Virus record (IMG/VR): IMGVR_UViG_3300029286_002355
Coordinates: 1-64,000 of that record
Origin: a virus
Direction: 5' to 3' (one strand)
Length of the DNA stretch: 64,000 nucleotides
Position numbers and translations under genes: made by a program. This document shows, in pieces, positions 9,451-58,536 of the stretch (within the stretch, counting starts at the first letter, position 1; the number at the start of each line of letters is the position of its first letter). Below the pieces are notes generated by a model. It saw nothing but the letters and a program-made list of their open reading frames with translations, did not search any database and was not told the DNA's origin.

Positions 9451-9873
9451 TCAATTACGCTTTTTTTTACCCCTCATACATATTGAAAAATCAGTAGGCT
9501 TTTTAGAAACCCATGCTACCCATTTTCGAATTTCAGGATGAGAACAAATAGCCTCTGGAGTATTATAGGTAGACCTTAACTCCTTTAGTGATAACAACTT
9601 ATGAATTTGGTCTCCGCATGAAACACAAACATGAATGGTTTCTTTACCTTTCATTGAGCGTGGGATGAGATGATGATGTTCCCAACAATCTTCTGGGACT
9701 TCTCTTTTACAAATAGGACAATGAGTTAACTCTTCTTCTTCGTATATTGGGCAAGCTTCTTTGGTACAGAAACATTGGAAATCAATACTACACCCGCTTC
9801 CAAGATCGCATATGGCCCATCCCAGTTTATCAGTCCATCCGTGCTCACATTCGATTTCTTCGTAAAATTTCAT
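9451..9873 (-). CDS. HNH endonuclease
   Basis: CPIC..HHHLIPRS..CVSCGDQIH. Confidence 0.75.
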   Translation of the reverse strand: MKFYEEIECEHGWTDKLGWAICDLGSGCSIDFQCFCTKEACPIYEEEELTHCPICKREVPEDCWEHHHLIPRSMKGKETIHVCVSCGDQIHKLLSLKELRSTYNTPEAICSHPEIRKWVAWVSKKPTDFSICMRGKKKRN

Positions 9874-10021: not shown

Positions 10022-10561
10022 CTATTTGCTGACTTCGTTTGCTTCTTTGTTTTCTTCAGGTATTTCAGATTGCAGAATTTTTTCTATGGTTAGTGGGCCT
10101 TCTTCTTTATATTTTTCAATTTGGCGTTGGATTTCTTCTAAGGTAAGTCCATGCCGATTACGTTCAGCTAATTCTTCTGGTTTCTTCCCGCCAGTTCCAA
10201 GATCCACAATTTTTACTTCATAGCCATATTTTAATGCAGCTTCAACATATCGTTTAGAATTCCACGCCCGAATACCAAGATTATCTATGACAATAGGCGT
10301 TCTACCTTCCCGCATGGCATTTATCGCCCTCTTTAGATTATTCTTAGAAACGGCAACCAAAGGAGTGTAATTGTCTTGTTCCTTCATCTTTGCAAAAAAA
10401 GCTATATATTCTTCGTCATTGTTAGAAATAAGATCGTCGGAAGAGAATATATTTTCTGGAACCACTCCGGGTAAATTTCTAGAGGCTGTACTTTTACCAC
10501 TTCCTGAAATTCCACGAAGTAGGAAGAGGATTTTTTTTTGCGATAGCCTATACCAGTTCAT
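10022..10561 (-). CDS. P-loop kinase (AAA_33, polynucleotide kinase-like)
   Basis: LLRGISGSGKST, IVIDNL, RNRHG. Confidence 0.8.
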   Translation of the reverse strand: MNWYRLSQKKILFLLRGISGSGKSTASRNLPGVVPENIFSSDDLISNNDEEYIAFFAKMKEQDNYTPLVAVSKNNLKRAINAMREGRTPIVIDNLGIRAWNSKRYVEAALKYGYEVKIVDLGTGGKKPEELAERNRHGLTLEEIQRQIEKYKEEGPLTIEKILQSEIPEENKEANEVSK

Positions 10562-11439
10562 GCTATTTCCTTGTAGAACTTTTCTCTAAATTTCTTGTCA
10601 TAAAATTCCGTAAACGTTATCTTATCTTCTTCATATAGTTTTGTTAAATCTCCTGTTGACAATTTTGGTATATCAACCATTTGATAAATAAGACCTTTTT
10701 TATTACAAAACTTTTCAGCAGCCTCCCTTTTCAGTTTATTAGAAGGAGTATTAAATAGTTTTTTTGGTTTGCATTCTATCAAGTATTTATCTTCTACAAA
10801 AAAGTCGGCTCTATACGTTCTTCTAGTACCGTCCCAGTTTACATATTCTATAGTTAAATCTTTTCTTTCAGCCGATATCCACTTTTTATTTTCTTTTTCT
10901 ATTATATTAATCATGTAAGATAGTTCTAAAATGCTTCTGAAATACCATTTGTTATACCAACCGCTCCATCCGTTTCCTGCCCCATGAGGAGAACATTTGC
11001 CAAACATGGAATTTTTTTCACCACTGTTATTTATAGATTGCTTTTTTCTATAGGCATCCATTTTTCTGTCTGCCTCTTCTTTGCCATATTTTTTTACCCA
11101 CTGTTGATATACGGTTTTTCCATACATCGGATTATTTTTACCTTGAGCGAGTTTAGTAAGTAATTTGATTCTTTCTGGTGATTTAAGATAAGCGTAATCT
11201 CTTGCCCTTAATACCGCTTTTGTTTCTTCTGTGTGGTGTTTACCCTCAAAGCCATTAGGATTATTTTTGGCATATTCTCTAAATTGTTTTGTTCTTAGTT
11301 TATGTATTTCTGGTCTATTGTTGATTTCGGAAGCGGAACAAGATCTACATGGTCTATTATTTACTTTGGAATTATAGTGGGAATGATATGATGAATAAAT
11401 GAGTTCTTTCCCACATTTAGGGCAATTTCTGGTATACAT
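10558..11439 (-). CDS. free-standing homing endonuclease: NUMOD3 repeats plus TnsA-like PD-(D/E)xK domain
   Basis: GKHHTEETK, KNNPMYGK, FRSILELSY..YRADF..LIECKP. Confidence 0.75.
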   Translation of the reverse strand: MYTRNCPKCGKELIYSSYHSHYNSKVNNRPCRSCSASEINNRPEIHKLRTKQFREYAKNNPNGFEGKHHTEETKAVLRARDYAYLKSPERIKLLTKLAQGKNNPMYGKTVYQQWVKKYGKEEADRKMDAYRKKQSINNSGEKNSMFGKCSPHGAGNGWSGWYNKWYFRSILELSYMINIIEKENKKWISAERKDLTIEYVNWDGTRRTYRADFFVEDKYLIECKPKKLFNTPSNKLKREAAEKFCNKKGLIYQMVDIPKLSTGDLTKLYEEDKITFTEFYDKKFREKFYKEIA

Positions 11440-11854: not shown

Positions 11855-12916
11855 TTAGTTAACAAACGCCTCATTACATTTCGGCATTTGATTTTCTAAT
11901 CTGAGGATATCAGTGTTCCTCTTAGTATTATCTCTGTCTAATACTAAATGACCATTGCCTTCAGTGTTATTCAATAATTCAAATGCCGCTATATTAAAAG
12001 CGGCATTTGAATCCGCATGGTCAGCGTGTCCACAACTAACACATTTGAATACTTTTCCATTCCTGTTTCCTATAACTCCACATCTACTACATTTTTGACT
12101 AGTATATGCAGGATTGATATAGACAACTGGTATTCCTAATATTTTGGATTTGTATTCTATCATGGTTTTAAGCTGATAGAAACTCCAACTATTTAAGGAG
12201 TACTTGAATGACGGTTGTGTTTTCTTATTTCTCTTTTCTCTAATTTGCGTTAAGTCTTCCAACTTAATTCCACAATTATTCTTTTGAGCAACTTGAACTA
12301 TCTTTCTACTAATCTCATGGTTCAAATTCTTAATTCTGTTTTGTTCTCTTCTCTTGATTTTCTTTAGTTGATATTTTGCTCCTTTCTTTTGTAGTTTTGT
12401 TCTCAGGTTCTTATATTTTAAGTGAAGATGATTTGCTTCTTTTCCTAATTTGATAACCTTTTTGGTTTTAGGAATTGCTACAACTGCACAATGACCAGTA
12501 GTATTTAAGTCCACTCCGATATAATCTTTAACTTTCATTTCCTGCTTGTTAGGCACTTCGCAGGAAATATAGCAATAGGTATTATCAACCTCTATCTGAT
12601 TGATTTTAGTGAAGTTGTTTGGAAATTGATATTGAAGCTCTAATTTAATTACTGAAACTTTGATTGTCTTAGTTTCTTGATTTACTTTAATACCTTGGTT
12701 TGGAATGGTTAGTTTAACAGATTTGATTGACTTACACTTTTTGTTCTTTGAATACTTTTTTAGGATTTGGTTAGATATTTGTGACTTTAGACCGAAGTGT
12801 TTTACGTCCTTAGAACTTCTAGATTTTGTTTTGATAGCAAAGGAAGCAATTTTTCTAGCAATATTCAATTCGCTAGAAAAATCTTTGTCGTGCTTCACTT
12901 TGTAGGTTAATATCAT
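11855..12916 (-). CDS. tnpB: TnpB RNA-guided nuclease
   Basis: GVDLN, LEDL, AYTSQKCSRC..CVSC..HADSNAA. Confidence 0.92.
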   Translation of the reverse strand: MILTYKVKHDKDFSSELNIARKIASFAIKTKSRSSKDVKHFGLKSQISNQILKKYSKNKKCKSIKSVKLTIPNQGIKVNQETKTIKVSVIKLELQYQFPNNFTKINQIEVDNTYCYISCEVPNKQEMKVKDYIGVDLNTTGHCAVVAIPKTKKVIKLGKEANHLHLKYKNLRTKLQKKGAKYQLKKIKRREQNRIKNLNHEISRKIVQVAQKNNCGIKLEDLTQIREKRNKKTQPSFKYSLNSWSFYQLKTMIEYKSKILGIPVVYINPAYTSQKCSRCGVIGNRNGKVFKCVSCGHADHADSNAAFNIAAFELLNNTEGNGHLVLDRDNTKRNTDILRLENQMPKCNEAFVN

Positions 12917-21060: not shown

Positions 21061-21726
21061 TTACAGAGTCTTACTACAGAGTCTTATAACGTTGTCATAA
21101 ATGGACTGAGCAATATCATCCTTTGATCTTAACACTTCTTCCCAATCCGCCATTAACAATACACCAACATGTTCCCCACTCTTTTCAATAGCCTTCTTAT
21201 CATTTGCAAAAACCATGTCCAATTTATTATCTTCCCACAACTTTTTGGCAATTTCCACCATCTCTTTCGAAGACTTGCCACTTGTAAACTTAAACCCCAC
21301 CAAAATAGCATCCTTATTCCATTTTCTGAAATTGGAAATAACCTTGGGCGTTTTACGGATTGTCTTACGCATATGCTCAATCAATGCATCAGACGAATCA
21401 CTACTAACCTTTACCGCCCCCTCATAATCAAAAGTAAAATCAGAAATTGCCATTGGATGAATCACTACATCCGCTTGAGGAACCAAAGACTTCATAGCCT
21501 CCATTACCGATTCCGTATTGGTAACTTTTACAAAAGAATAGCAATAAAGATCGGACGGCTTTACGGCAGATTCAGGAGCTACATAAGTAACGTTATGCCC
21601 ATGTTCTAGGAATGTCTGGGCAATTAAAGCTCCCAGTCTTCCTGTAGAAATATTCGTGAGAACCCTTATGTCGTCTATGTGCTCAGCCGTTCCACCACTA
21701 GTAACTACTACGTTTAATTTCTTCAT
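21061..21726 (-). CDS. coaB: phosphopantothenate--cysteine ligase (monofunctional)
   Basis: VVVTSGGTAEHIDDIRVLTNISTGRLG, HPMAISDF, LVGFK, FAND. Confidence 0.9.
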   Translation of the reverse strand: MKKLNVVVTSGGTAEHIDDIRVLTNISTGRLGALIAQTFLEHGHNVTYVAPESAVKPSDLYCYSFVKVTNTESVMEAMKSLVPQADVVIHPMAISDFTFDYEGAVKVSSDSSDALIEHMRKTIRKTPKVISNFRKWNKDAILVGFKFTSGKSSKEMVEIAKKLWEDNKLDMVFANDKKAIEKSGEHVGVLLMADWEEVLRSKDDIAQSIYDNVIRLCSKTL

Positions 21727-23084
21727 GCGAATGCCTCCTTTGCTATTTCTATATTTTTATCTTCCCCATCTTCTAACCATAGTACAATTACCTTGAACCC
21801 TTTTTTCGTGGCAAATCTATTTTTTTCTTCATCAAAGCTACTTTTAACATCCGCAGCTTCTTTTGTCCAAGGGTGCCTCCATGAATCCCACCTATTATAA
21901 TCGCTAGACTTCCATACAGGGTTAGGATGAACGTGCTCTCCGTTAAATTCCAATATAACCTTTTTTGATTTAACTACAAAATCGTAAACGTAAAATTTTT
22001 CTTTGTCGCCTAAAAACCATTCTTGAGAACCGCTTATGCCAAAGAATATATCGTCTCTTCCAATACCGTTTTTCCTTAAATACTTATATAGTGGAATAAA
22101 AACCCTAAGAGAATATTTAGACGCCATCCTGTTACGAGACTTTAACTGTTCCATCCAGTTTATATATCTTTTCTTACCTTCATTTTTCCCATACTTTTTA
22201 GTGAGATATTCTAGCGTATGCGAATAGGCTATGGTTTTGCATTTTTCTTTATGTCTTATGTGCCCTTCTTTTTCCCCATATTTTTCTACATACCACTTCA
22301 AAGACCCCTTTTCTCTAGCTTTGGTTAAATATTGAGACCATTTTAGTAGCCCATCCTCTAAACCGTATAATGCAACACACTTTTCGTAAGAATAACTTAC
22401 TTTTTTGCATAAACTTTCATATTTCTTTTTACCTTCTTTCTTGCCATATTTCGCTTCAAACTTTTTTAAACTAAACCCACTATTTTTTTTAAATTCTTCC
22501 CAACGCTTCGAGCCATTTTTTTCCCCATACAGTCCTATATAGTTTTGCAATGTATTTTTCCATGTTTTTTGCTCGGCGGATTTTTCGGCAGCTTCTTTTT
22601 CCCCATACCCTCGCTTAATCCAAAACTCAGGATTATGTGGAGAAAACTCTTTTTTAAATTTTGGATCGGAATTTAGTTTTTCAATAAGTATTTTTCTTGA
22701 ATCGTTTTGAAACTTTTCTTTAAGCAATTGGGCTTCTTTTTTTGTATAGCCTTTTCTTAACCAATATTGAAGGGACATTTTTCCACGTCCAGATTGTAAT
22801 TTGGATATTTTAGTTTTGGCGTCAGCTATGTCCCATCCTCTTATCGTCCAATATTCTGTTGATAATTTAGATTTAATACAGAAATATTTACTCCTAATAA
22901 GCCTGAGCAATCTTACAATTCCAATAGAATTAAAGCCTGATAAAATTTCTTCGAAAACCCCCATAAGGCTTGGCGTCATCTTTTTTATGTCTACTATGTG
23001 TTTATGACGTATAAACTCAAAAAGCTCTTGGGGACTACTAACTGTACCTAAAATTTCATTATATTTACATATTTTCATAATCAC
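21723..23084 (-). CDS. free-standing homing endonuclease: YGxxxG helical repeats plus Vsr-like PD-(D/E)xK domain
   Basis: Repeated KYG.EEG..KW/Y units; YVYDF..ILEFNGEHVH. Confidence 0.7.
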   Translation of the reverse strand: MIMKICKYNEILGTVSSPQELFEFIRHKHIVDIKKMTPSLMGVFEEILSGFNSIGIVRLLRLIRSKYFCIKSKLSTEYWTIRGWDIADAKTKISKLQSGRGKMSLQYWLRKGYTKKEAQLLKEKFQNDSRKILIEKLNSDPKFKKEFSPHNPEFWIKRGYGEKEAAEKSAEQKTWKNTLQNYIGLYGEKNGSKRWEEFKKNSGFSLKKFEAKYGKKEGKKKYESLCKKVSYSYEKCVALYGLEDGLLKWSQYLTKAREKGSLKWYVEKYGEKEGHIRHKEKCKTIAYSHTLEYLTKKYGKNEGKKRYINWMEQLKSRNRMASKYSLRVFIPLYKYLRKNGIGRDDIFFGISGSQEWFLGDKEKFYVYDFVVKSKKVILEFNGEHVHPNPVWKSSDYNRWDSWRHPWTKEAADVKSSFDEEKNRFATKKGFKVIVLWLEDGEDKNIEIAKEAFA

Positions 23085-23204: not shown

Positions 23205-23540
23205 TTACACTTCTTTTGGCGGCTTCGGATTCCAATCTACACTTGCGAAAACCTGATAGTCTTTAACATTGTTGGCGATTTTAGCAACTTCACTCATTGT
23301 CGTTTTACTCCCGCACATTTGGAGAAACTCGAACAATCCACGTGGCCCCTCCCCATAATAGCCCCAACTAAAACCACTAAAAGTAAAGATGTTGTTTGTC
23401 CACTCTGCTTTGACCAAATACTCCCAAGGGTCATCAACATAAGTCAGAGTAATCCTTATAGGCTTACCAAACGCCTTAATCAACATCTTGGCGTTATCTA
23501 GCGAATTTTCTGTTACTCCGCATTCTTCTTTGATTTTCAT
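23205..23540 (-). CDS. hypothetical protein
   Basis: FSGFSWGYYGEGPRGL, a motif I associate with phage hypothetical proteins. Confidence 0.65.
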   Translation of the reverse strand: MKIKEECGVTENSLDNAKMLIKAFGKPIRITLTYVDDPWEYLVKAEWTNNIFTFSGFSWGYYGEGPRGLFEFLQMCGSKTTMSEVAKIANNVKDYQVFASVDWNPKPPKEV

Positions 23541-23541
23541 G

Positions 23542-24087
23542 TTATCCTCTTTTCTTTTCGATTACCATGTTTATGAACTCAATAGCATCTCTTGGCTTCA
23601 TAACTCCACCATTACCAACATCTCCACAAGCTAACTTCGTTTCTATGGTTGCCGCTACCCAAGTCCCATGAACCTTAAGCATTTCAATATTCCTAACCGT
23701 AGTAAAATGTTCCAACATGTTTGTATTCATTGCCGGGAACACTATTTTTATTGTTTTTTTCGGTAGAGCCAAATAAACCGTAGAAAGCAAATCGTCGGCA
23801 ATACCACAAGAAAACTTAGCAATGATATTGGCTGTGGCAGGATAGACTACAAAAATTTCACTCCATTTTGCCACCTCAATATGCTCTACTAAACCATTTC
23901 TTTCTACCCACATATCGTTCATTACAGGATGATTAGACAAAGTAGATAAGGTCAATGGGGTAATGAATTTGGTAGCACTATCAGTCATGATTACTCTAAC
24001 ATCATGCCCTTGCGCCTTTAATCCCGTAATCAAATCACAAGCCTTGTAACAAGCTATCCCCCCTGTTATTCCAACAATGATATTCAT
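23542..24087 (-). CDS. coaC: phosphopantothenoylcysteine decarboxylase (flavoprotein)
   Basis: GITGGIACYK, HIEVAKW, PATANIIAK..GIADDL, PAMNTNM, LACGDVGNG. Confidence 0.92.
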   Translation of the reverse strand: MNIIVGITGGIACYKACDLITGLKAQGHDVRVIMTDSATKFITPLTLSTLSNHPVMNDMWVERNGLVEHIEVAKWSEIFVVYPATANIIAKFSCGIADDLLSTVYLALPKKTIKIVFPAMNTNMLEHFTTVRNIEMLKVHGTWVAATIETKLACGDVGNGGVMKPRDAIEFINMVIEKKRG

Positions 24088-27019: not shown

Positions 27020-28150
27020 TTACTCCTTTCCATATGTTAGTTGAAACCTTCGAGAAATTGCCTTAATAGAAAGCCTTCCACCCCTAAGAGCATAACTTGT
27101 CATTTCCTTTACGGGCCTGATGACTACCCCTTCCGCAGGAGTCCCATTCGCATAGTTTTGAGCATCAGCAAATTCAACTAGTTCATCCACGGTCTTCCAT
27201 TTGAAAACTCCAACATAAATAACAGGAACCCTAGGAATATTATGAGTATCGCAGAAAGAAACAAAATCAGCATAGTCAAGATACCTGTGTCCCAAGATGC
27301 TAAATACATCAAAAGCCGCAATTTGAACATCTTTCATTCCCAGTTTGTTTCCTTGGACTCCATTGCCGTAAATTTCACTTTGTAATGCGCTATTTGTTCC
27401 TTTAAGGATATCAATAATGCCATACTTTTTAGTCATGTTCCAATAGGTGTTACCCTCTGTATCCTTTAGCTCAATGTTTCTAGAACATACACCAAAAATA
27501 TGACCTTCGGCAATGTTTTCTGTCTTGCTGTAGGCGGTAAAGCTCGTTCCGTCTATTTTTGTGGTCACATAGACTTCTACTCCCTGAAGCTCTTCAATGG
27601 TTCCGGGATAGGCTTGCACTCGATGTACGTCTGTTTTAATAAGAAATCCGGGGAAGTTCCCTTTCATCAATCCCTTAAGTTCGGCGGGAATATCGGGAGT
27701 ATATTGTGTAACCCCAAAGAACTCTCCGACATCATCATCAACAGAATGAACAGCCTTAGTGATTCCAAGCTTGATTTTGGCTTCCATGTAGGCACAATAT
27801 TTATCATTGTCAATAATAGAAAGGGGCATAGCCAAACCTTGCGAAACTTGGCCCCTCAACTTTACGGTTTTCAATCTAATAGGTTTATCGGGACGGTTCT
27901 TATCAACAAGAAACTCATTCCAAGTATCTTTTTTAAGAATGGAATCTACCTCAAAATAAACGCAAAGATCGCCAACATTGAATTCACCTTTCTTGACTAC
28001 AACTTTCCATCCAAGAACAGAAGCGCATTCAATCTTGTCGGCATTCGGGATAGGATCAAGGGCAGTAACCTTCTGAATGGTTGCGAGATGACGAACCACT
28101 TCAACCTTCTCTTCCACTTTTTCTTTTACTTCTGTAGTATTCTCGTCCAT
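27020..28150 (-). CDS. ATP-dependent RNA ligase, Rnl2/DRB0094 family with N-terminal OB fold
   Basis: LATIQKVTALDPIPNADKIE, TKIDGTS, SEIYG, AFDV, EGVVIR, IKAIS. Confidence 0.88.
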   Translation of the reverse strand: MDENTTEVKEKVEEKVEVVRHLATIQKVTALDPIPNADKIECASVLGWKVVVKKGEFNVGDLCVYFEVDSILKKDTWNEFLVDKNRPDKPIRLKTVKLRGQVSQGLAMPLSIIDNDKYCAYMEAKIKLGITKAVHSVDDDVGEFFGVTQYTPDIPAELKGLMKGNFPGFLIKTDVHRVQAYPGTIEELQGVEVYVTTKIDGTSFTAYSKTENIAEGHIFGVCSRNIELKDTEGNTYWNMTKKYGIIDILKGTNSALQSEIYGNGVQGNKLGMKDVQIAAFDVFSILGHRYLDYADFVSFCDTHNIPRVPVIYVGVFKWKTVDELVEFADAQNYANGTPAEGVVIRPVKEMTSYALRGGRLSIKAISRRFQLTYGKE

Positions 28151-38150: not shown

Positions 38151-38369
38151 TCATTTTTTCACATCCTCACGGCTAATCAGTATTCGCATGGCTATATTAC
38201 AGGCAAATCCTATGCTCAACAGAACCCAATCAACCCAAGTCAGGTATTTAAACATAAGAAGATTGTAAGGTTTATCCCATACGTGACAGGTACTGGTTAC
38301 GGTTCCTACCAATACAAAAATACCAGTCAAAACAAGTAATATTTCTATCCATATATCAGATTTTCTCAT
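38151..38369 (-). CDS. small membrane protein
   Basis: Two hydrophobic segments. Confidence 0.6.
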   Translation of the reverse strand: MRKSDIWIEILLVLTGIFVLVGTVTSTCHVWDKPYNLLMFKYLTWVDWVLLSIGFACNIAMRILISREDVKK

Positions 38370-39652
38370 TCTTCACCTGCATCTTTCCAAGAAACAAGAG
38401 GAAAAAGTTTGAACAATGGCAATACCAAATCGGCCTCATTAGAAATTACGTCTTCGATATCCTTATAGGCTTGAGGAGCTTCACTAAAATCCATCATACC
38501 CAAGTCCTTTCCCTTACGAGATACAGCCCTGCCATATTTAGTATGATAAACGCCTTCCATTGCTTTTTCTATTTCCTTGATCTTTTCAGGAGTATTGTAT
38601 TCTTGATTAAAGGCATTACGGCCCATTCTACGACCTGCCCCATGAGAACAAGATGACAATGATTCTTTTTGCCCACGTCCCCTTACGATGTAGGAAGCGG
38701 TGCCTTGAGAACCGGGTATGATTCCAATGGTCTTTTCACTTGCCAATGTAGCTCCCTTACGATGAACCCAAATATTTCTTCCAAAATGGTTTTCTATAGA
38801 GGCATAGTTATGATGAATGTTGATGAGATCCTTTACCCCCACTATTTCTCCCGAAGTGTTTTGCATATTAGGGAAGTAATGAAGCAGATTGTCCCAAATA
38901 TCATCCAACATAGCTTTGCGGTTATAGAAGGCAAAGTTAAGGCACATATTCATCCATCCCAAATAAGCCTTTCCTTCTTGGGAAGTAACAGGCAAGAAAG
39001 GAACAGAAGATTGCGAATACCACTCATGATTTATTTTTGCAGCAACATCATTAAAGTGATCGCATACTTTCTTACCTATATTACGGGAGCCAGAATGAAC
39101 CATAACCCAAATGTTTCCATTTTCGTCATATTGGAGTTCTATGAAGTGGTTGCCGCCTCCCAAGGTTCCCATTTGAGAAAAGAAAGCATCGGGTTTAACA
39201 ATCACGGGAACGGAAAGAACATCCAATCTATTTTCTCCCATGCAGAGATGTTTTGTGAGAGCATAATTAATCTTGTCACTGTATTTCTGTTCCATTATCT
39301 TTCGGCGTTGGTCTGTGTTATGCGAAAAGCCCATAGGAATAGCTCGTTCAATAGCATGATGAAGGATTTCTTCTTTCCCTTTAATATCTTGAACAGTAAG
39401 GTTGGTACGGAAAGCACCAAGGCCGCAGCCGATATCGACACCCACGAAGTTAGGAACAACAACACTAGTGCATGCAACAACTCCACCAATTGGCATGCTC
39501 ATTCCCTGATGACAGTCCGGCATCAAAGCAAAATGCTCGACAAATGGGAGTTTAGCAATGGCCTCTATCTGTTCAATAGCTCCCGCCTCAATATCGGAAC
39601 ACCAAGAAAAAACGGGCTTTCCATTCGATAACTTTATTTCCATAGTTTTCAT
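38366..39652 (-). CDS. rtcB: RtcB 3'-5' RNA ligase
   Basis: MPDCHQG, GVDIGCG, GTLGGGNHFIE, HSGSR, HHNY, HRKGA, HGAGR, EAPQAYK. Confidence 0.95.
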   Translation of the reverse strand: MKTMEIKLSNGKPVFSWCSDIEAGAIEQIEAIAKLPFVEHFALMPDCHQGMSMPIGGVVACTSVVVPNFVGVDIGCGLGAFRTNLTVQDIKGKEEILHHAIERAIPMGFSHNTDQRRKIMEQKYSDKINYALTKHLCMGENRLDVLSVPVIVKPDAFFSQMGTLGGGNHFIELQYDENGNIWVMVHSGSRNIGKKVCDHFNDVAAKINHEWYSQSSVPFLPVTSQEGKAYLGWMNMCLNFAFYNRKAMLDDIWDNLLHYFPNMQNTSGEIVGVKDLINIHHNYASIENHFGRNIWVHRKGATLASEKTIGIIPGSQGTASYIVRGRGQKESLSSCSHGAGRRMGRNAFNQEYNTPEKIKEIEKAMEGVYHTKYGRAVSRKGKDLGMMDFSEAPQAYKDIEDVISNEADLVLPLFKLFPLVSWKDAGEE

Positions 39653-51061: not shown

Positions 51062-52030
51062 CTATTTTTTCATATTTTTTTCAACATAATCTTTTTCCTC
51101 TTTACTCAGGGTATGACAAATAAACCTAAATTTTCCACCCATCACCCGTACAACATACTTCTTTTTAGATACGACATTCCTAAGATAATGCATCCATCCT
51201 TTCCCTAAAAAGTTTTTCTTGTTAAATCCCGTAACCTCCACATATGTATTTGTTTCTGGAAAAAAGAAATCGTATCTTTTTAGCCCTCTTTTCCCAAGAT
51301 GCCCATATTTTTCATTGTGGATAAAGTTTAAATTATCTTTTTTGTATTTCAAATAAAAGAATGCTTCTGTTTTAGATGCGCACCTTGCACCATCCTTAAG
51401 AACTATCTTGTTTGCCTTACTACATTTTGGACAGTGGTTCCCGTCATTTCTATGATAAACCTCTGTTTCCCATTCATGCCTACAGGTAGAACATATCCAC
51501 CATGCCACAAAATTACTTCCGGGAGATACATCGAATGGAGTACGCTTCCTATTTTTTGTGGGGTGCCATTCTTTTGCTATTTTAGGCAGTTGGGTCTTCA
51601 AACAATTACTTTTACAAACCTTATGTCCGCTACAATATGGACAGCCGTTACCGCTATTTCTATAATTAATTCCGGCTTTCCATTCATGTGTTTCACCATT
51701 AACAATATGCTCCCACCATACGGATTTGCTAGAACCCGGCAAAAAATCAAATGGGCCTCTTACATTTTTGTGTCCCCACTCTTTAGAAAGTAATGGGTTA
51801 ACAGATCCTAACGATATACACTTAGGACATTGACCATAATTAAAGAGAGTCCTGTAATATATTTTTGTTTTCCATTCATTTCCGCATTTTATACATTTCC
51901 ACCATGCTTTTCTGTCAGATCCATAACCAATTTTTGTTACATCGAGTTTTCCATTTTTTGTAGGGTGCCATTCTTTTGCCAATATTGGATTGTGTATAGC
52001 AAGGGATATCTTTTTACAATTTTTTTTCAT
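51062..52030 (-). CDS. zinc-ribbon-repeat protein with C-terminal PD-(D/E)xK nuclease (homing endonuclease-like)
   Basis: Repeated LAKEWHPTKN..WW.C..C units; YDFF..YVEV. Confidence 0.75.
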   Translation of the reverse strand: MKKNCKKISLAIHNPILAKEWHPTKNGKLDVTKIGYGSDRKAWWKCIKCGNEWKTKIYYRTLFNYGQCPKCISLGSVNPLLSKEWGHKNVRGPFDFLPGSSKSVWWEHIVNGETHEWKAGINYRNSGNGCPYCSGHKVCKSNCLKTQLPKIAKEWHPTKNRKRTPFDVSPGSNFVAWWICSTCRHEWETEVYHRNDGNHCPKCSKANKIVLKDGARCASKTEAFFYLKYKKDNLNFIHNEKYGHLGKRGLKRYDFFFPETNTYVEVTGFNKKNFLGKGWMHYLRNVVSKKKYVVRVMGGKFRFICHTLSKEEKDYVEKNMKK

Positions 52031-53145: not shown

Positions 53146-53834
53146 GGATTTTGATTAATTTTTATGACCAATTTATCACTTAAATATTTTGCCCCCAACA
53201 AGAAATCAAACTCTTCTTTATTGGTTGGTAATTCTCCGAAAACATCTTTAATAACATTTACTAAATAAAGAGGATGGCTTTGTTTATCCCATGCGTCAAT
53301 AGGATGGTTTTCGTCTCCATCTGACTCCCAGTGATCTTCTAGCCATTTATAACTACAAGCAATCCCTATTTCAACTACTTCATTTAATATCCATGATGGC
53401 AAATGATGGAGGGATAGTTTGGTTACGTTTTTATATCCTGCCAAAATAGGATTACAAAATGGTGAGTGTCTATCGTTTTTCGGTTCATGACATAACGCTA
53501 TATCCAATCGAATGTTAAAGGGGTGCATCCAAACAAAGGCGTTCCTATTTTTAACCCAATTAGCCCATGTTCCACAATTCAATTTGGGCCTTAAAGCTTT
53601 ATTACAACTATCATATCCGTTATTGCTGATATCCGAATGATAATCTAGGTTAATAATACGATCACAATGAGATTTATTTATAAATGGGAGTAGGTCGGCG
53701 TGATCATCCACAATTTTGATTGGTAGACCAGTAGCCTTAATTTGCCGCATGAATTTAAGGCATTCTTTTGCGGGTCTATCGTTCCAAAAATCTAGATCTA
53801 TGGATAGATACGTTTTCAAGGTTATCTCAAACAA
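53142..53834 (-). CDS. UPF0489-like protein
   Basis: LSIDLDFW, DDH, NLDYHSD, NCGTW. Confidence 0.6.
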   Translation of the reverse strand: MFEITLKTYLSIDLDFWNDRPAKECLKFMRQIKATGLPIKIVDDHADLLPFINKSHCDRIINLDYHSDISNNGYDSCNKALRPKLNCGTWANWVKNRNAFVWMHPFNIRLDIALCHEPKNDRHSPFCNPILAGYKNVTKLSLHHLPSWILNEVVEIGIACSYKWLEDHWESDGDENHPIDAWDKQSHPLYLVNVIKDVFGELPTNKEEFDFLLGAKYLSDKLVIKINQNP

Positions 53835-54226
53835 GTAATGGAATCTGCGACATAAGTTCCGTGAGGGGCGTTTTCGGTAAAAGGGACAGAAGCACCTTTT
53901 GTTTTATTTACATAATCCCAAAAATATGTTAGCTGGGTTAAGCTATTAGTAATGAATGGTTGTTTTTTGGGGTTAGTGGCAATACATTTTACAGTAATAT
54001 ATTCTACTCCATTATACCTGCCTAACCTGCCTATGTAATTTTTGGCATCTTTTTCACTTTTAAAAAAGAATAATTTTGATCCTTTTAGAGACGGAAACAC
54101 TTCAACATTGACCGGATAACGTATAGAATGAATATTTAGATTATCCCAATCGCTAATGGAGCGTCTATTCTTTTTAAGTAAAACTTTCCACCCCTTACAC
54201 TTATTTATTGTTTTTGATTTTTTCAT
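53822..54226 (-). CDS. paralog family member 2 (unknown function)
   Basis: Same motifs as 47730-48068; start moved to MKKSKT. Confidence 0.7.
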   Translation of the reverse strand: MKKSKTINKCKGWKVLLKKNRRSISDWDNLNIHSIRYPVNVEVFPSLKGSKLFFFKSEKDAKNYIGRLGRYNGVEYITVKCIATNPKKQPFITNSLTQLTYFWDYVNKTKGASVPFTENAPHGTYVADSITCLR

Positions 54227-54254
54227 ACTTGTCTCCTTCTCTGCAATACGAACG

Positions 54255-54497
54255 TCATTTTTCATAAGTTACTGTTCTTTTTCTTTTGGGAACAGGAGCC
54301 GAAGCTTTGGGTTCTTTACACTCGTCTTGATCTAGCGGAACCACGTAAGTATCAACTCCGCAACCGCAACCGCATGTAAAATGAATTATTTTACCTTTAA
54401 TAATTCCTCTTTTGATTCTGGAATTGAGAACTGAGTCTATCCACTTGGACTCTCTCATTTGTTTCCCGCTTAAGAAATACTTATCCGATCTTTTCAT
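54255..54497 (-). CDS. hypothetical protein (CGCGC)
   Basis: Start moved to MKRSDK. Confidence 0.55.
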   Translation of the reverse strand: MKRSDKYFLSGKQMRESKWIDSVLNSRIKRGIIKGKIIHFTCGCGCGVDTYVVPLDQDECKEPKASAPVPKRKRTVTYEK

Positions 54498-55485
54498 CTT
54501 CCTCCTCCACAACAACATGAAACTTATCTATGAATTTCTGTTTAAGATTAATTCCTATAGAAATCTTTTTTGCCCCAACATTCTTAAGCTCTTCCTCCAT
54601 GGTTGAGCCATTCTTGCGAAGAGAGAAGATGATTCCCTTTTCGAAAGCATAAACGGTTTTAGGTATAATGGTAAGCGCAAACTCCTTCTGCTCCTTGATA
54701 TCCTTATGATCTTGGTAAACAGAAGCAATACGGTTTTTGATTTCCGTATAAATACCATCCACAAAAGTAAAGTACGGTTCATCTTCGGGAAAATAACGAA
54801 GATATTCAGGGTGTTCATTTCCCATAATAAGATTTAGGACATTCTTGGGCGAAATATTTCCGTTCTCCCTCATGTGGGCTACGGCAACAAAAGAAGGGTT
54901 CTTTGTTTTAACTCTATGATGAGACCCATTTTCATTTTCAATTACAACCACCACTCCTTCTTGAAGCGTTGGAAAAGATTCTACCAACTTAAATAGCTCG
55001 GCAAAATCCTTACAAACGAAAATTTCTGGGCGATCAACTTCCATCATCCTTGCAACATTATTTAGCTCCGTATTGGAAAGTTCCCGATAGTTGTTGCGCT
55101 CAAGATTGTTCCTGCCACCAATAAGTGTAATTTTGTTTTCCGTATAGGGAGAAACAACCCGGTTTTCTGGCCCCGTAAGCTCGAATACAAGAGTAAATTC
55201 TTTCATTTCTAAAAGTGTAAGAAACTCCTTAAGACCTGTTTTCTTTTCAGCATCCCAAAATACTTCGGCAAAAGTTCTTCCTAGATTGGTTTGTCCCTCT
55301 GCGAAAGCCATTTTTCGAGTAGCTACGCACCACTTCTCTCCGTCAAAATAAAGCGAAAGCAGAGAGTTATGAACCAGCATATCGTTTGCAAAATAATTTT
55401 CGGTAGTAGTTTGCAAATCATAGCGTTTTGACTTACACTCTACCTTCTTAATCAATTTTATTTTGGCGAGCATAGGTTTACCCAT
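54481..55485 (-). CDS. split intein C-fragment plus C-terminal half of an Rnl1-type RNA ligase
   Basis: YDLQT..NYFANDMLVHN/S then SLLSLY, FEL..PENRVV, EGVVV, VKTK. Confidence 0.9.
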   Translation of the reverse strand: MGKPMLAKIKLIKKVECKSKRYDLQTTTENYFANDMLVHNSLLSLYFDGEKWCVATRKMAFAEGQTNLGRTFAEVFWDAEKKTGLKEFLTLLEMKEFTLVFELTGPENRVVSPYTENKITLIGGRNNLERNNYRELSNTELNNVARMMEVDRPEIFVCKDFAELFKLVESFPTLQEGVVVVIENENGSHHRVKTKNPSFVAVAHMRENGNISPKNVLNLIMGNEHPEYLRYFPEDEPYFTFVDGIYTEIKNRIASVYQDHKDIKEQKEFALTIIPKTVYAFEKGIIFSLRKNGSTMEEELKNVGAKKISIGINLKQKFIDKFHVVVEEEDEKIG

Positions 55486-55524
55486 AAAGCCCCTTTCTCA
55501 ATTGTTTGCGCTATCATAACATTT

Positions 55525-56677
55525 TTATTTAATAAGGCAAGATAAATCTTCTGTTAACAAAAGTTTTTCTGCCACCAACTTTTCTAGCTCTTCGTCATTG
55601 CATCTTCTAATTTCGTTTTCCCAAACATAAACCACAAAATATCCCATTTTTTCTGCCATGTTCTTTTTTTTCAAATCCCTATTCCATAGTTCTTGTGCTA
55701 ATATTTTATTACCAAACGGAAACGGCAACATATCATTATGCTTGTATTTGTCGGGATTGGCATGATAAAAGTCTCCGTTCACCTCCAACAAAATCTTGCC
55801 AATCCTAAAATCAAACTGCTTAAATTTCAAATAAAAAGAATGAGTATATTCTAGCCCCCATTTTAATAATATGTTGTTTACTCTACCCTCTATGCTCGAT
55901 ACCGTTACGTGGTGCAATCTTGACAAAATTTTGCTTTTTTCTTCATCTGATAGTTTTTCCCATCTACGCTTACATCCATCACTGAATTCATTTCTTTTCT
56001 TCGGGCAATTCTTTCCAGTATTTTTTAACAACTTCACTTTTTTCTTTTCTTTTCTTTTTCGTCTGACAAGGCCAATCGGTCCCATAATTTTTCCTTGAGG
56101 TCGCCACTCGTTTCTTTTCTATATCTCCCCATTTTTCATCGTTAAATTTCAATCGTGCTTCTGATATTTTTTCTGGATTACAAACCCTTTTTACACCATA
56201 TCTTCCCATAATTGTTGAGGTTATTTTTTCTTTTATTACTTCTATCTGAAATACATTATTTACGCCATATCTTTCTTGAACGGTTTTGTTTCTTTTGTCA
56301 TAAGCATCTGTTCCCCTACTCAACACGTTTATTTTCCCATATTTTTTTAAGCAAGTAGTTTCAAATTTTTTCTTTCGTTGTGGTAAACTGGAACTAACTT
56401 TAATACTTCTAGTCTCGAAGCCATAATATTTTAAAAGGAAAATTGTTTCTTTGAACCATAATCCAAATTCGTTTTTTATGTCTGGTAAACTTTTTTGTTT
56501 TACCACGTATTCTTCTTCTAGCTTTTCTTTGGTCGCTATAAGTGGGAAATTATATGCCAAGAAACTTGCTTTTATATCATTTTTGCCAAGATCTCCCCTG
56601 CTTTCGCACTTATATATGTGATGGCCCTTTATTTCCCCAAATGATAATTCTTTATAACAAAATGGACATTTTCTCAT
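55525..56677 (-). pseudogene. Vsr-like (EDxHD) homing endonuclease split by a +1 frameshift near 55990
   Basis: ORF 55988-56677 (KYG/RYG repeats) continues in ORF 55525-56085 (SSIE..FDF..LEVNGDFYH) if one base is removed from AAG AAA TGA. Confidence 0.75.
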
Positions 56678-56724
56678 TTTTTATCCCCAAGACAAACATG
56701 ACCCACTCATATTTGTCGTGTATA

Positions 56725-57441
56725 TTAGTTCGATAGAAAAACAGAATCTCCTTCTTTTAATTCTTTTACTTTTCTATAGCACTTAAATTCTGGTAGCCAT
56801 ACATAATGTTCGCTTGTTAGTTTAATGGTTTTCCCGTTTTCTAGTTCTATTTCAAACCAATCGTCATTATTGTTTTTAATAGAAAACGCAAGAACATCAG
56901 CCCAAACAGTTTCCCCTGTATCGGTATCATACGCCAATATCTCTACCTTTTTTTTAGCCTCGCATATTTCTTTTATTGTTTTGTCACCGTCACGAGTTGT
57001 TATGAGCACATCTTCGGAACAACACCCATCTAGCTTGTTTTGAATCAACGCATCATTGAGACAAAGCTTCCATGTTCTAGGTTCATCAAAACTAGCTTCA
57101 CGTTGATTCCCTGAAAGCTTATCCTTTTCTTCGATCCCTTCTGCAAAATTATAAAAACGAACGAAGGACATTGCCATAACTTCCCAAGTTCCTTTGCGCA
57201 GGATTAGTCCACGGCATTCATCGCAGATTGGATTGAACTTAGGGCTATCAATTTGCGAGTAATTTAGTGTTACTCTGTCGGGATATTCTTTGACTTCAAT
57301 ATGGAATTCGTCTTGGAGTTTTTGAAGACCGTTTTTTATTAGATATTCTTGGACGTTAAGCATAGTATCCTTAAATTTCTTTCTTGCATCCTGAACAATT
57401 AGTTGACCTGATCGTGCAATAACAACCCTTATTTTTATCAA
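56725..57441 (-). CDS. N-terminal half of an Rnl1-type RNA ligase plus split intein N-fragment
   Basis: ECRGLI, RFYNF, motif I NKLDG then C1 CSEDVLITTRDG..LTSEHYVW..ELKEGD. Confidence 0.9.
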   Translation of the reverse strand: MIKIRVVIARSGQLIVQDARKKFKDTMLNVQEYLIKNGLQKLQDEFHIEVKEYPDRVTLNYSQIDSPKFNPICDECRGLILRKGTWEVMAMSFVRFYNFAEGIEEKDKLSGNQREASFDEPRTWKLCLNDALIQNKLDGCCSEDVLITTRDGDKTIKEICEAKKKVEILAYDTDTGETVWADVLAFSIKNNNDDWFEIELENGKTIKLTSEHYVWLPEFKCYRKVKELKEGDSVFLSN

Positions 57442-57571
57442 ACAACTTTTTGGCCTTTTTTACAGCCGATACACTATTGCGAGCTTCAACTTCATAAGTT
57501 GCGCTATCGTTATGATCGTACCCATTATATCCTTCGTATGAATAGTCAAATTGTATTTTGTATCTTTTCAC
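57371..57571 (-). CDS. hypothetical protein
   Basis: ORF with AGAAGG SD; overlaps the annotated ligase start, whose real start may be internal. Confidence 0.55.
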   Translation of the reverse strand: MKRYKIQFDYSYEGYNGYDHNDSATYEVEARNSVSAVKKAKKLFDKNKGCYCTIRSTNCSGCKKEI

Positions 57572-57590
57572 GTTGCCTTCTTAGTCTTTC

Positions 57591-57884
57591 TTACATTCTA
57601 TCTTCGGTATAGATACATGGGTTTTTACCAAGAGCATCTCTCCACCCCTTTCGCATAAGCTTGAAATGTTTCTTCTTTTGTGCCATATATTTCTTTTTGG
57701 CTTCCTCTCCGTGTCGCCATATATCTTCGATTTCTTGGGCCAACTGAGGAATTCTACCAAAACCATGCTCCTTACAAAGCAGCAATAGGTCAATAAGAAC
57801 ATTCTTTTCTCGGTAATAGCCTACAGTTTCCTTCGGCCAAACATTAATACAATCCAGATCTTCTACTTTTGGTGTTTTGTGCAT
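57591..57884 (-). CDS. hypothetical protein
   Basis: ORF with SD. Confidence 0.65.
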   Translation of the reverse strand: MHKTPKVEDLDCINVWPKETVGYYREKNVLIDLLLLCKEHGFGRIPQLAQEIEDIWRHGEEAKKKYMAQKKKHFKLMRKGWRDALGKNPCIYTEDRM

Positions 57885-57899
57885 TTTCGTTCCTTTCTT

Positions 57900-58151
57900 T
57901 TATGCCACTTTCTCTCTGAGTTTTTCTATTGGTTTTACTCCTGCCATTTTTGCCACTTTCTCTTCGGCTTCTTTTTTCTCGTTATATTTGTCCATTGCTG
58001 TCTCAAATTCATCCATGCTCCACCCATTCTCTTCTCTTGTTTTCGACCATTCCACAAGTAGATTGAAAGTTTTAACCCTGTATCTGCCCCAAGCCTCGTC
58101 AAATAGACGTTTCATGGTTTCAAAATCCGCCTGAACAGGTTTCTTTTTCAT
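57900..58151 (-). CDS. hypothetical protein
   Basis: Start moved to MKKKPVQ. Confidence 0.6.
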   Translation of the reverse strand: MKKKPVQADFETMKRLFDEAWGRYRVKTFNLLVEWSKTREENGWSMDEFETAMDKYNEKKEAEEKVAKMAGVKPIEKLREKVA

Positions 58152-58161
58152 ATTTATCCTT

Positions 58162-58536
58162 TCATTCCAAACAAGTGATGGAGTCAGCAACGTAAGTTCC
58201 TTCTGGTGCAAGATTTAAAAGACTGCTGATACCTGTTATTTCCCAAGAATATTTTATATCTTCTCTCATTGCGGCAACATATTTTTTCTTTTTTGGATTT
58301 TTAGCAATGCACTTCACAATTATACAATCGCTACAACTAGCCCTATCGAAACAAACAGCATCGGCATATTTTTTAAAAAAGAACAGTTTTGATCCAGTTA
58401 GTGTTGGGAACATTTCGACATTAACTGGATAGGTTATAGCGAACTCGTTTTTACCACTCCAATCGCTGATAGAACGTCTATTCTTTCTAAGTAAAACTTT
58501 CCACCCTTCGCACATCTTTGCCTTTTGTTTTTTCAT
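58162..58536 (-). CDS. paralog family member 3 (unknown function)
   Basis: Same motifs as 47730-48068. Confidence 0.7.
   Translation of the reverse strand: MKKQKAKMCEGWKVLLRKNRRSISDWSGKNEFAITYPVNVEMFPTLTGSKLFFFKKYADAVCFDRASCSDCIIVKCIAKNPKKKKYVAAMREDIKYSWEITGISSLLNLAPEGTYVADSITCLE

Follow-up and report, generated by a model that had tools for sequence, protein, structure and literature searches.

A T4 Rnl1-type RNA ligase gene of a lake-water phage, fractured at motif I by a split intein and very probably rejoined by protein trans-splicing

The window analysed here is a 64,000-nucleotide (nt) stretch, positions 1 to 64,000, of IMG/VR virus record IMGVR_UViG_3300029286_002355, a 186-kb record of 36% GC from an uncultured lake-water phage. 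It contains a gene in two separately encoded pieces whose product belongs, as judged by its sequence, to the T4 Rnl1-type ATP-dependent RNA ligases, and whose motif I is interrupted by the two halves of an intein. We consider it very probable that this is a fractured ligase gene, with a cassette inserted between the Gly and the Ser of KLDG|S, and that its halves are joined by protein trans-splicing. The cassette would be a mobile one, in which class-1 HINT intein halves lie on either side of a free-standing gene for a Vsr-like homing endonuclease. RNA ligase is a new host enzyme for this known fractured-gene layout.

The split-ligase locus and all of the genes that surround it lie on the minus strand. 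The first open reading frame (ORF; 56725-57441), the N-piece, reads ..ALIQNKLDG and then CCSEDVLITT...KLTSEH...VFLSN before its stop (TAA, 56725-56727), and the second (54481-55485), the C-piece, begins MGKPMLAKIKLIKK...NDMLVHN (MGKPMLAKIK..) and continues SLLSLYFDGEKW, in which Ser+1 opens the sequence SLLSLYFDG. The true start of the N-piece is ATG 57363 (MLNVQEYL), which has an AAGGA 4 nt upstream (57368-57372), is directly preceded by the stop of the preceding ORF, and corresponds to residue 1 of intact homologues; with this start the N-piece is 212 rather than 238 amino acids (aa) long. It consists of a 113-aa N-extein of T4 Rnl1 type (57025-57363), which ends in motif I KLDG with the catalytic Lys three residues before the junction, and a 99-aa amino-terminal intein half, IntN (56728-57024). 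The C-piece consists of a carboxy-terminal intein half, IntC (55366-55485), of 40 aa, or 36 aa if counted from ATG 55473, which ends in VHN, and a 294-aa C-extein (54481-55365; Ser+1 plus 293 aa; stop 54481-54483). An initial annotation, made from the letters of this DNA without database searches, had placed the Cys1 codon at 57022-57024 and the codon for the terminal Asn of IntC at 55366-55368 and had described a 99-aa IntN, a 36-40-aa IntC and Ser+1, and all of these assignments hold; its N-piece ORF was right in its stop and content, and only the start has to be moved to ATG 57363.

The identity of the host protein is indicated by both exteins. A homologue search of 5.8 billion proteins returned many uninterrupted ligases of ~405-420 aa, the best of which (P0002, 405 aa) is 77% identical to the C-extein over its residues 115-404. 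Residues 1-113 of the N-extein align with P0002 residues 1-114, and the C-extein, from Ser41 of the C-piece, aligns with P0002 from residue 115, so that the exteins abut at G114|S115 of P0002 with no residue missing or extra. The P0002 junction reads ..IQNKLDG|SLLSCYFDG.., which bears out the earlier statement that the joined sequence NKLDG-SLLSLY would be a normal Rnl1 motif I. The C-piece matches Pfam PF09511 at 38.3 bits (cut-off 28.3), and the profile of PHROG 562 (T4 RnlA) is matched by the N-piece from position 17 to 107 and by the C-piece from 107 to 362 (E 5e-27); thus the two pieces meet at a single profile position. The C-extein also aligns to the T4 Rnl1 structures 5tt6 and 2c5u across the segments that bear motifs III, IV and V, and its FEL (III), EGVV (IV) and VKTK (V) sequences fall in invariant alignment columns, KLDG being on the N-piece. 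We take the corresponding motif residues of T4 Rnl1 to be K99, E159, E227, K240 and K242, an assignment that reportedly goes back to Wang, Schwer and Shuman in 2006. T4 RNA ligase 1 (RnlA; 2c5u, 5tt6) thus shares with the window exteins membership of PF09511 and PHROG 562 and an alignable set of motifs I (KxDG), III, IV and V; it differs in being a single uninterrupted polypeptide, and the similarity is remote (E ~3e-4).

The sequences between the exteins are recognisable as intein on both sides of the break. When the pieces were searched one at a time, PF14890 and Hint matched the end of the N-piece, and PF14890 positions 121-155 matched the start of the C-piece; read across the locus, PF14890 is matched at positions 7-96 (38.2 bits, above the cut-off) and 114-155. 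The initial annotation had proposed a comparison with the split intein NrdJ-1, and both halves indeed match its structure (8ubs), the N-half over residues 10-104 (E 2e-6) and the C-half over residues 113-149 (E 1e-3), while a profile of the family matches NrdJ-1 with an E of 1.6e-13, the cyanobacterial DnaE inteins coming next. NrdJ-1 (8ubs, 9omb) is the closest solved intein for both halves, and it has the same Cys1 and Ser+1 and a similar split (~100 + 40 aa). However, the identity is roughly one third (estimated by eye, not computed), and NrdJ-1 sits in a ribonucleotide reductase and at another insertion site; with its low identity, different host and different site, the window intein is an allele, and belongs to a clade, distinct from NrdJ-1. 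The canonical catalytic residues are all present, namely Cys1 (followed by Cys2), the block B T-S-E-H, the terminal His-Asn and Ser+1. IntN carries a net charge of -7 and the IntC core one of +2. On this sequence evidence IntN and IntC combine into a single HINT splicing domain, and the 186-kb record has no other intein. The complementary matches to PHROG 562 and PF14890 and the agreement with P0002 at the junction go far beyond coincidence.

We envisage the following sequence of events at this locus. The genes would probably be co-transcribed, since they lie on one strand and a terminator scan between the pieces found none on the coding strand. Two polypeptides would then be translated, one of 212 aa made of the N-extein and IntN, the other of 330-334 aa made of IntC and the C-extein; their separate translation is supported by the stop after IntN and by the C-piece's own start and ribosome-binding site (AAAGGGG, 4 nt before ATG 55485); RNA folding of the stretch ahead of the C-piece gave nothing significant. 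The two halves, IntN acidic and IntC basic, would associate and fold into one HINT domain, in which Cys1, the block B Thr and His, the terminal His-Asn and Ser+1 would perform protein trans-splicing to give a seamless 407-aa ligase. Because the catalytic lysine is on one piece and motifs III-V are on the other, the ligase would be expected to be inactive before splicing; the unspliced intein would occupy its active site, and activity would await the restoration of motif I. It has also to be considered that the ligase might work as two non-covalently associated subunits, with the intein halves acting only as a dimerisation module and not splicing at all. Split-intein halves do bind tightly through complementary charge, and sequence cannot prove splicing chemistry, but the clade keeps without exception the residues that matter only for that chemistry (Cys1, the block B His, the terminal Asn and the +1 nucleophile), and a folded 135-aa HINT domain would be wedged into motif I between its Gly and its Ser, three residues away from the catalytic lysine. 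We therefore regard such an unspliced dimer as very unlikely. A further idea, that the split has been kept as a post-translational switch that makes a repair ligase active only once both halves have accumulated, and is not a mere dead end of endonuclease invasion, seems to us unlikely. The vicinal Cys1-Cys2 pair, which is kept in most Rnl1 alleles, might in that case render the switch redox-sensitive.

The trans-spliced reading of the locus draws indirect support from related loci. Some 45 relatives of the N-piece, close to it in length, carry both RNA-ligase and intein Pfam domains, and from IMG/VR we fetched 33 related viral loci, all 33 of which have IntN and then IntC on one strand; in that collection alignment with the C-piece returned only intact ligases, and it was alignment with the N-piece that found the split loci. 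All of the 25 distinct alleles compared share Cys1, the T and H of block B and the terminal HN; residue +1 is always Ser or Cys in them, and S, D, N, A and L residues of IntC do not vary either. The endonuclease gene between the halves is far less constant. It is intact in about 12 loci, broken by a frameshift in the window and in locus L076, truncated in L067-L074, absent from L062, L065 and L090, where only ~100-140 nt separate the two ORFs, and on the strand opposite to the ligase pieces in L080, L081, L083 and L084. The intein halves persist in the three loci from which the endonuclease is absent, and related loci thus display all stages of endonuclease decay (intact, frameshifted, truncated, deleted and inverted) with the intein still split. 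One locus departs from the pattern in a different way: at L061:4911-5795 the stop after IntN is missing, and the N-piece extends ~70 residues further.

The endonuclease gene of the window has its own start and ribosome-binding site (GGGGA) and is read as two ORFs in different frames that overlap by 98 nt. ORF A (55988-56677, minus strand; 229 aa) has a CxxC..H..C zinc-finger-like start and DUF7487 repeats (Pfam DUF7487, E 1e-10), also matches PHROG homing-endonuclease families, and aligns to the amino-terminal two thirds of single-ORF relatives. ORF B (55525-56085, minus strand; 186 aa), in the +1 frame relative to ORF A, encodes the Vsr-like nuclease domain with the sequences EVNGDFYHANP and VWENEI; it matches PHROG 22677 (E 2.7e-18) at profile positions 264-346 of 353, which is the carboxy-terminal third, its homology to relatives begins near residue 34, and it retains the motifs E-V-N-G-D-F-Y-H, a later D, and W-E. 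Twelve relatives have a single endonuclease ORF of 304-372 aa. A profile of the endonuclease family matches I-Bth0305I (3r3p) with an E of 5e-7 and, more weakly, the E. coli Vsr structures 1cw0, 1vsr and 1odg at 0.014-0.1 (1cw0, 0.014). I-Bth0305I, ORF B and its relatives have in common the nuclease domain and the conserved E-V-N-G-D-x-W/Y-H, later D and W-E; in contrast, the group I intron that houses I-Bth0305I interrupts a phage recA gene, the window enzyme lies between split-intein halves, and in the window the DNA-binding amino-terminal part and the nuclease domain are not in one ORF but in separate frames. The initial annotation's free-standing Vsr-like endonuclease was therefore correct as to family, but the frameshift that gives two ORFs had gone unremarked.

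The frame break lies at the TGA stop of ORF A, within an A-rich tract at ~55988-56000. The exact 229-aa ORF A product occurs on 3 contigs from three sources in the protein collection, and contigs of three lake-water metagenome runs, including one run that carries no flag as a possible source, agree exactly over this position, so the break is real at the DNA level. Most likely this one-base frame break means that the endonuclease is decaying in this phage. Programmed frameshifting was considered and found unsupported, as a +1 shift would be needed, 55988-56000 offers neither a long A-run nor a classic slippery site, and the relatives are plain single-ORF genes. We suppose that the endonuclease would originally have carried the cassette into empty ligase alleles and would now be decaying while the intein stays split.

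The presence of this endonuclease also raises the possibility that the interruption is removed from RNA, by a group I or similar intron that bears the endonuclease gene, and that the intein-like residues are incidental. The same Vsr-like family does occur in group I introns (Dassa 2009), and 3r3p is annotated as a 'mobile intron protein'. Against this, a search of 54000-58000 with Rfam, including its group I introns, gave no match at E<=1 and hence no known intron ribozyme core; the flanking sequences encode HINT halves with a significant match to a solved split intein; and the halves are under purifying selection even where there is no endonuclease and only ~100-140 nt lie between the ORFs. 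We give an intron almost no credence.

The same genome encodes further RNA-repair enzymes, and these bear on how the locus is to be read. Two more RNA ligases are intact in the window, one with a PHA02142 OB-fold and PF09414 (27020-28150, minus strand) and an uninterrupted RtcB (38366-39652, minus strand). The former belongs to the commonest host family of the intein clade described below, yet it is unoccupied here. Outside the window a Pnkp-like kinase-phosphatase (AAA_33 + PNK3P) adjoins a Tpt1/KptA 2'-phosphotransferase (G000, ~150.5-152.2 kb; L095:142-756 and L095:820-1794, minus strand). The Pnkp-like protein, Tpt1 and the three ligases are a full RNA-repair kit, and the presence of Pnkp-like, Tpt1, PHA02142-type ligase and RtcB proteins indicates that this phage invests heavily in RNA repair. 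Together with the Pnkp-like and Tpt1 enzymes, the spliced ligase would have a role in RNA (tRNA) repair. Phages deploy RNA-repair enzymes against host tRNA-cleaving defences.

Several points weigh against a functional trans-spliced ligase. The N-piece alone scores 35.2 bits against the Pfam intein family, just under its gathering threshold of 35.8; the broken endonuclease shows that parts of the cassette are decaying; with an intact PHA02142-type ligase and RtcB in the genome the split ligase may be dispensable or redundant here; and we infer splicing, ligase activity and expression, all three, from sequence. Median dN/dS is lower in the intein halves (IntN 0.13, IntC 0.11) than in the N- and C-exteins (0.21 and 0.27), and these values must be taken as rough, as dS is saturated (>1). 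Such considerations might be taken to mean that the whole locus is decaying, that is, that the cassette killed the ligase, that the halves go unspliced or unexpressed, and that the other RNA ligases do the work. The frameshifted endonuclease and the two intact ligases (27020-28150 and 38366-39652) would fit this. However, both ligase pieces are open and full-length, with the C-extein as close to its intact homologue as stated above and motifs I, III, IV and V in place; the intein catalytic residues are intact here, invariant across the 25 alleles and accompanied by low dN/dS; and both pieces have ribosome-binding sites. Among the sequencing runs searched no RNA run contains the stretch, and the contigs show no joined form, neither of which bears on expression. 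We therefore judge general decay to be distinctly improbable, and we consider the locus, as far as its sequence can tell, to be probably functional and the fractured, trans-spliced ligase gene the better description of it.

The window intein is one of many. When IntN alone was run in a full HMMER search against 1.84 billion cluster representatives, 692 clusters passed E<=1e-3 and 257 of them E<=1e-10. Nearly all of the best representatives are split, 138 of 148 ending within 5 aa of the end of IntN. The only contiguous form among the best 148 is P0286, a metagenomic protein of 520 aa that carries a mini-intein reading ..LLREGG-MKLKSIRKI..LVHN|S; as the start Met of IntC is retained after an in-frame join, its sequence suggests that P0286 arose by re-fusion of split halves rather than being an ancestral mini-intein. 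By Pfam, 67 of the best 148 carry the PHA02142 OB-fold, 19 carry Rnl1 and 2 carry AAA_33, and no ribonucleotide reductase or helicase hosts appear; every recognised host is an RNA ligase of the Rnl1, Rnl2 or PHA02142 type. In locus L087 an intein of the clade follows the KxHG of a T4 Rnl2-type ligase, and other loci have it in ligases with PHA02142 and PF09414. On the intein tree like hosts group together (28 label changes, where shuffled labels give 58), although the tree rests on 99 columns and most of its forks are unresolved; its well-supported branches force 2-3 changes per host label, and the labels are not monophyletic. The intein has thus probably switched ligase family more than once. 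The clade appears to be specialised on phage RNA ligases, in which it sits at or near motif I of three families and is almost always split, and one intein lineage is thereby found at the same catalytic motif in three ligase families.

A few members of this clade lie elsewhere in the host protein. In L077, L079 and L085 the N-pieces end ..KTDExR|C, an insertion ~25 residues upstream of motif I in PHA02142-type ligases, and with this second site the clade has at least two insertion points. At L079:4431-7800 a PHA02142-type ligase is cut by two split inteins of the clade into at least three pieces; its middle piece consists of IntC, 23 aa and IntN, and another gap precedes the last ligase ORF.

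The layout of the window locus is that described by Dassa, London, Stoddard, Schueler-Furman and Pietrokovski in 2009, who found it in eight host types in ocean and lake metagenomes (PMC2677866). Like the window, their loci consist of the host amino-terminal part with IntN, a free-standing endonuclease, and IntC with the host carboxy-terminal part, on one strand of phage-like DNA. They also share with the window clade a HINT fold broken where endonucleases usually insert, an acidic IntN and a basic IntC (the charge complementarity of natural split inteins; PMC2677866) and the occurrence of endonuclease-less loci, and with the window itself a Vsr-like endonuclease and a hairpin in the endonuclease 5' untranslated region. 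The fractured-gene layout around a split intein that had been proposed for the window is supported, with canonical catalytic residues and a precise motif I junction. The window locus differs in its Rnl1 host, in the insertion directly after nucleotidyltransferase motif I, and in its frameshifted endonuclease. The hosts listed in 2009 are gp41 (-1 to -9), IMPDH-1, DnaE, NrdA, NrdJ-1/2, DNA ligase, terminase and one unknown protein, and RNA ligase is not among them (PMC2677866). As to the suggestion that an RNA-ligase host may mark a new allele, the window intein is no one-off, being a member of a large metagenomic clade. Inteins have been reported in RtcB-type RNA ligases of archaea and actinobacteriophages, where they are contiguous (bioRxiv 10.1101/2025.01.02.630785). 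These, like the window ligase, are RNA-repair ligases invaded by inteins; however, RtcB is unrelated to the window ligase in fold and chemistry, and its reported inteins are not split. In the literature searched we found no report of a split intein in an ATP-dependent RNA ligase, RnlA included, and no description of this clade. Among 50,697 GenBank phage records there is no RNA ligase with this IntN; the closest inteins there, 31-35% identical, are in ribonucleotide reductases of Campylobacter phages, and the locus itself gave no blastn match to GenBank phages.

These findings extend fractured genes from DNA-metabolism to RNA-repair enzymes, and they also have a practical side. Fast natural split inteins (gp41-1, NrdJ-1 and IMPDH-1) are standard tools of protein engineering, and sets that do not cross-react are limited. 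Natural pairs of 99 + 36-40 aa that meet at a Gly(-1)/Ser(+1) junction number in the hundreds in this clade, and, given their distance in sequence from NrdJ-1, some of these pairs may be orthogonal.

Two features of the locus might bear on its regulation. The first is a hairpin (56691-56717, minus strand) whose 11-bp stem closes a loop of 5 nt; it lies in the endonuclease 5' untranslated region and shortly precedes the GGGGA ribosome-binding site of that gene, and its minimum free energy is -17.4 kcal/mol over an 81-nt stretch, with a z of -1.8, which is weak on its own. Hairpins were present upstream of 15 of 16 fracturing endonuclease genes in the earlier survey (PMC2677866). The second is a promoter-like candidate (55513-55540, minus strand; TTGCCT, 16 nt, TG-TATGAT) ~28 nt upstream of the C-piece start; the region holds 10 such sites, with 10.4 expected from shuffled sequence, and so shows no excess.

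The window contains other genes of the mobile type. A second Vsr-like endonuclease gene, intact and encoding 453 aa (21723-23084, minus strand; PHROG 22677), lies between a flavoprotein-like ORF and an ORF for a DFP/CoaB carboxy-terminal domain (ORFs 23542-24087, 23205-23540 and 21061-21726). We take the flavoprotein-like ORF to be CoaC-like from our own reading of its sequence, no family search having been made, and this region may be a fused coaBC (dfp) gene that has been fractured without an intein. Also on the minus strand are genes for a protein with three DUF4379 treble-clef zinc fingers (51062-52030), a NUMOD3 + TnsA-like endonuclease (10558-11439), an HNH protein (9451-9873) and a transposase-like ORF (11855-12916), and with these the genome is rich in selfish elements. 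Finally, the ligase locus is flanked, one on each side, by two small paralogous ORFs (53822-54265 and 58162-58536, both minus strand) that have no family match and share the sequence CxGWKVLLxKNRRSISDW and a carboxy-terminal GTYVADSITCL.

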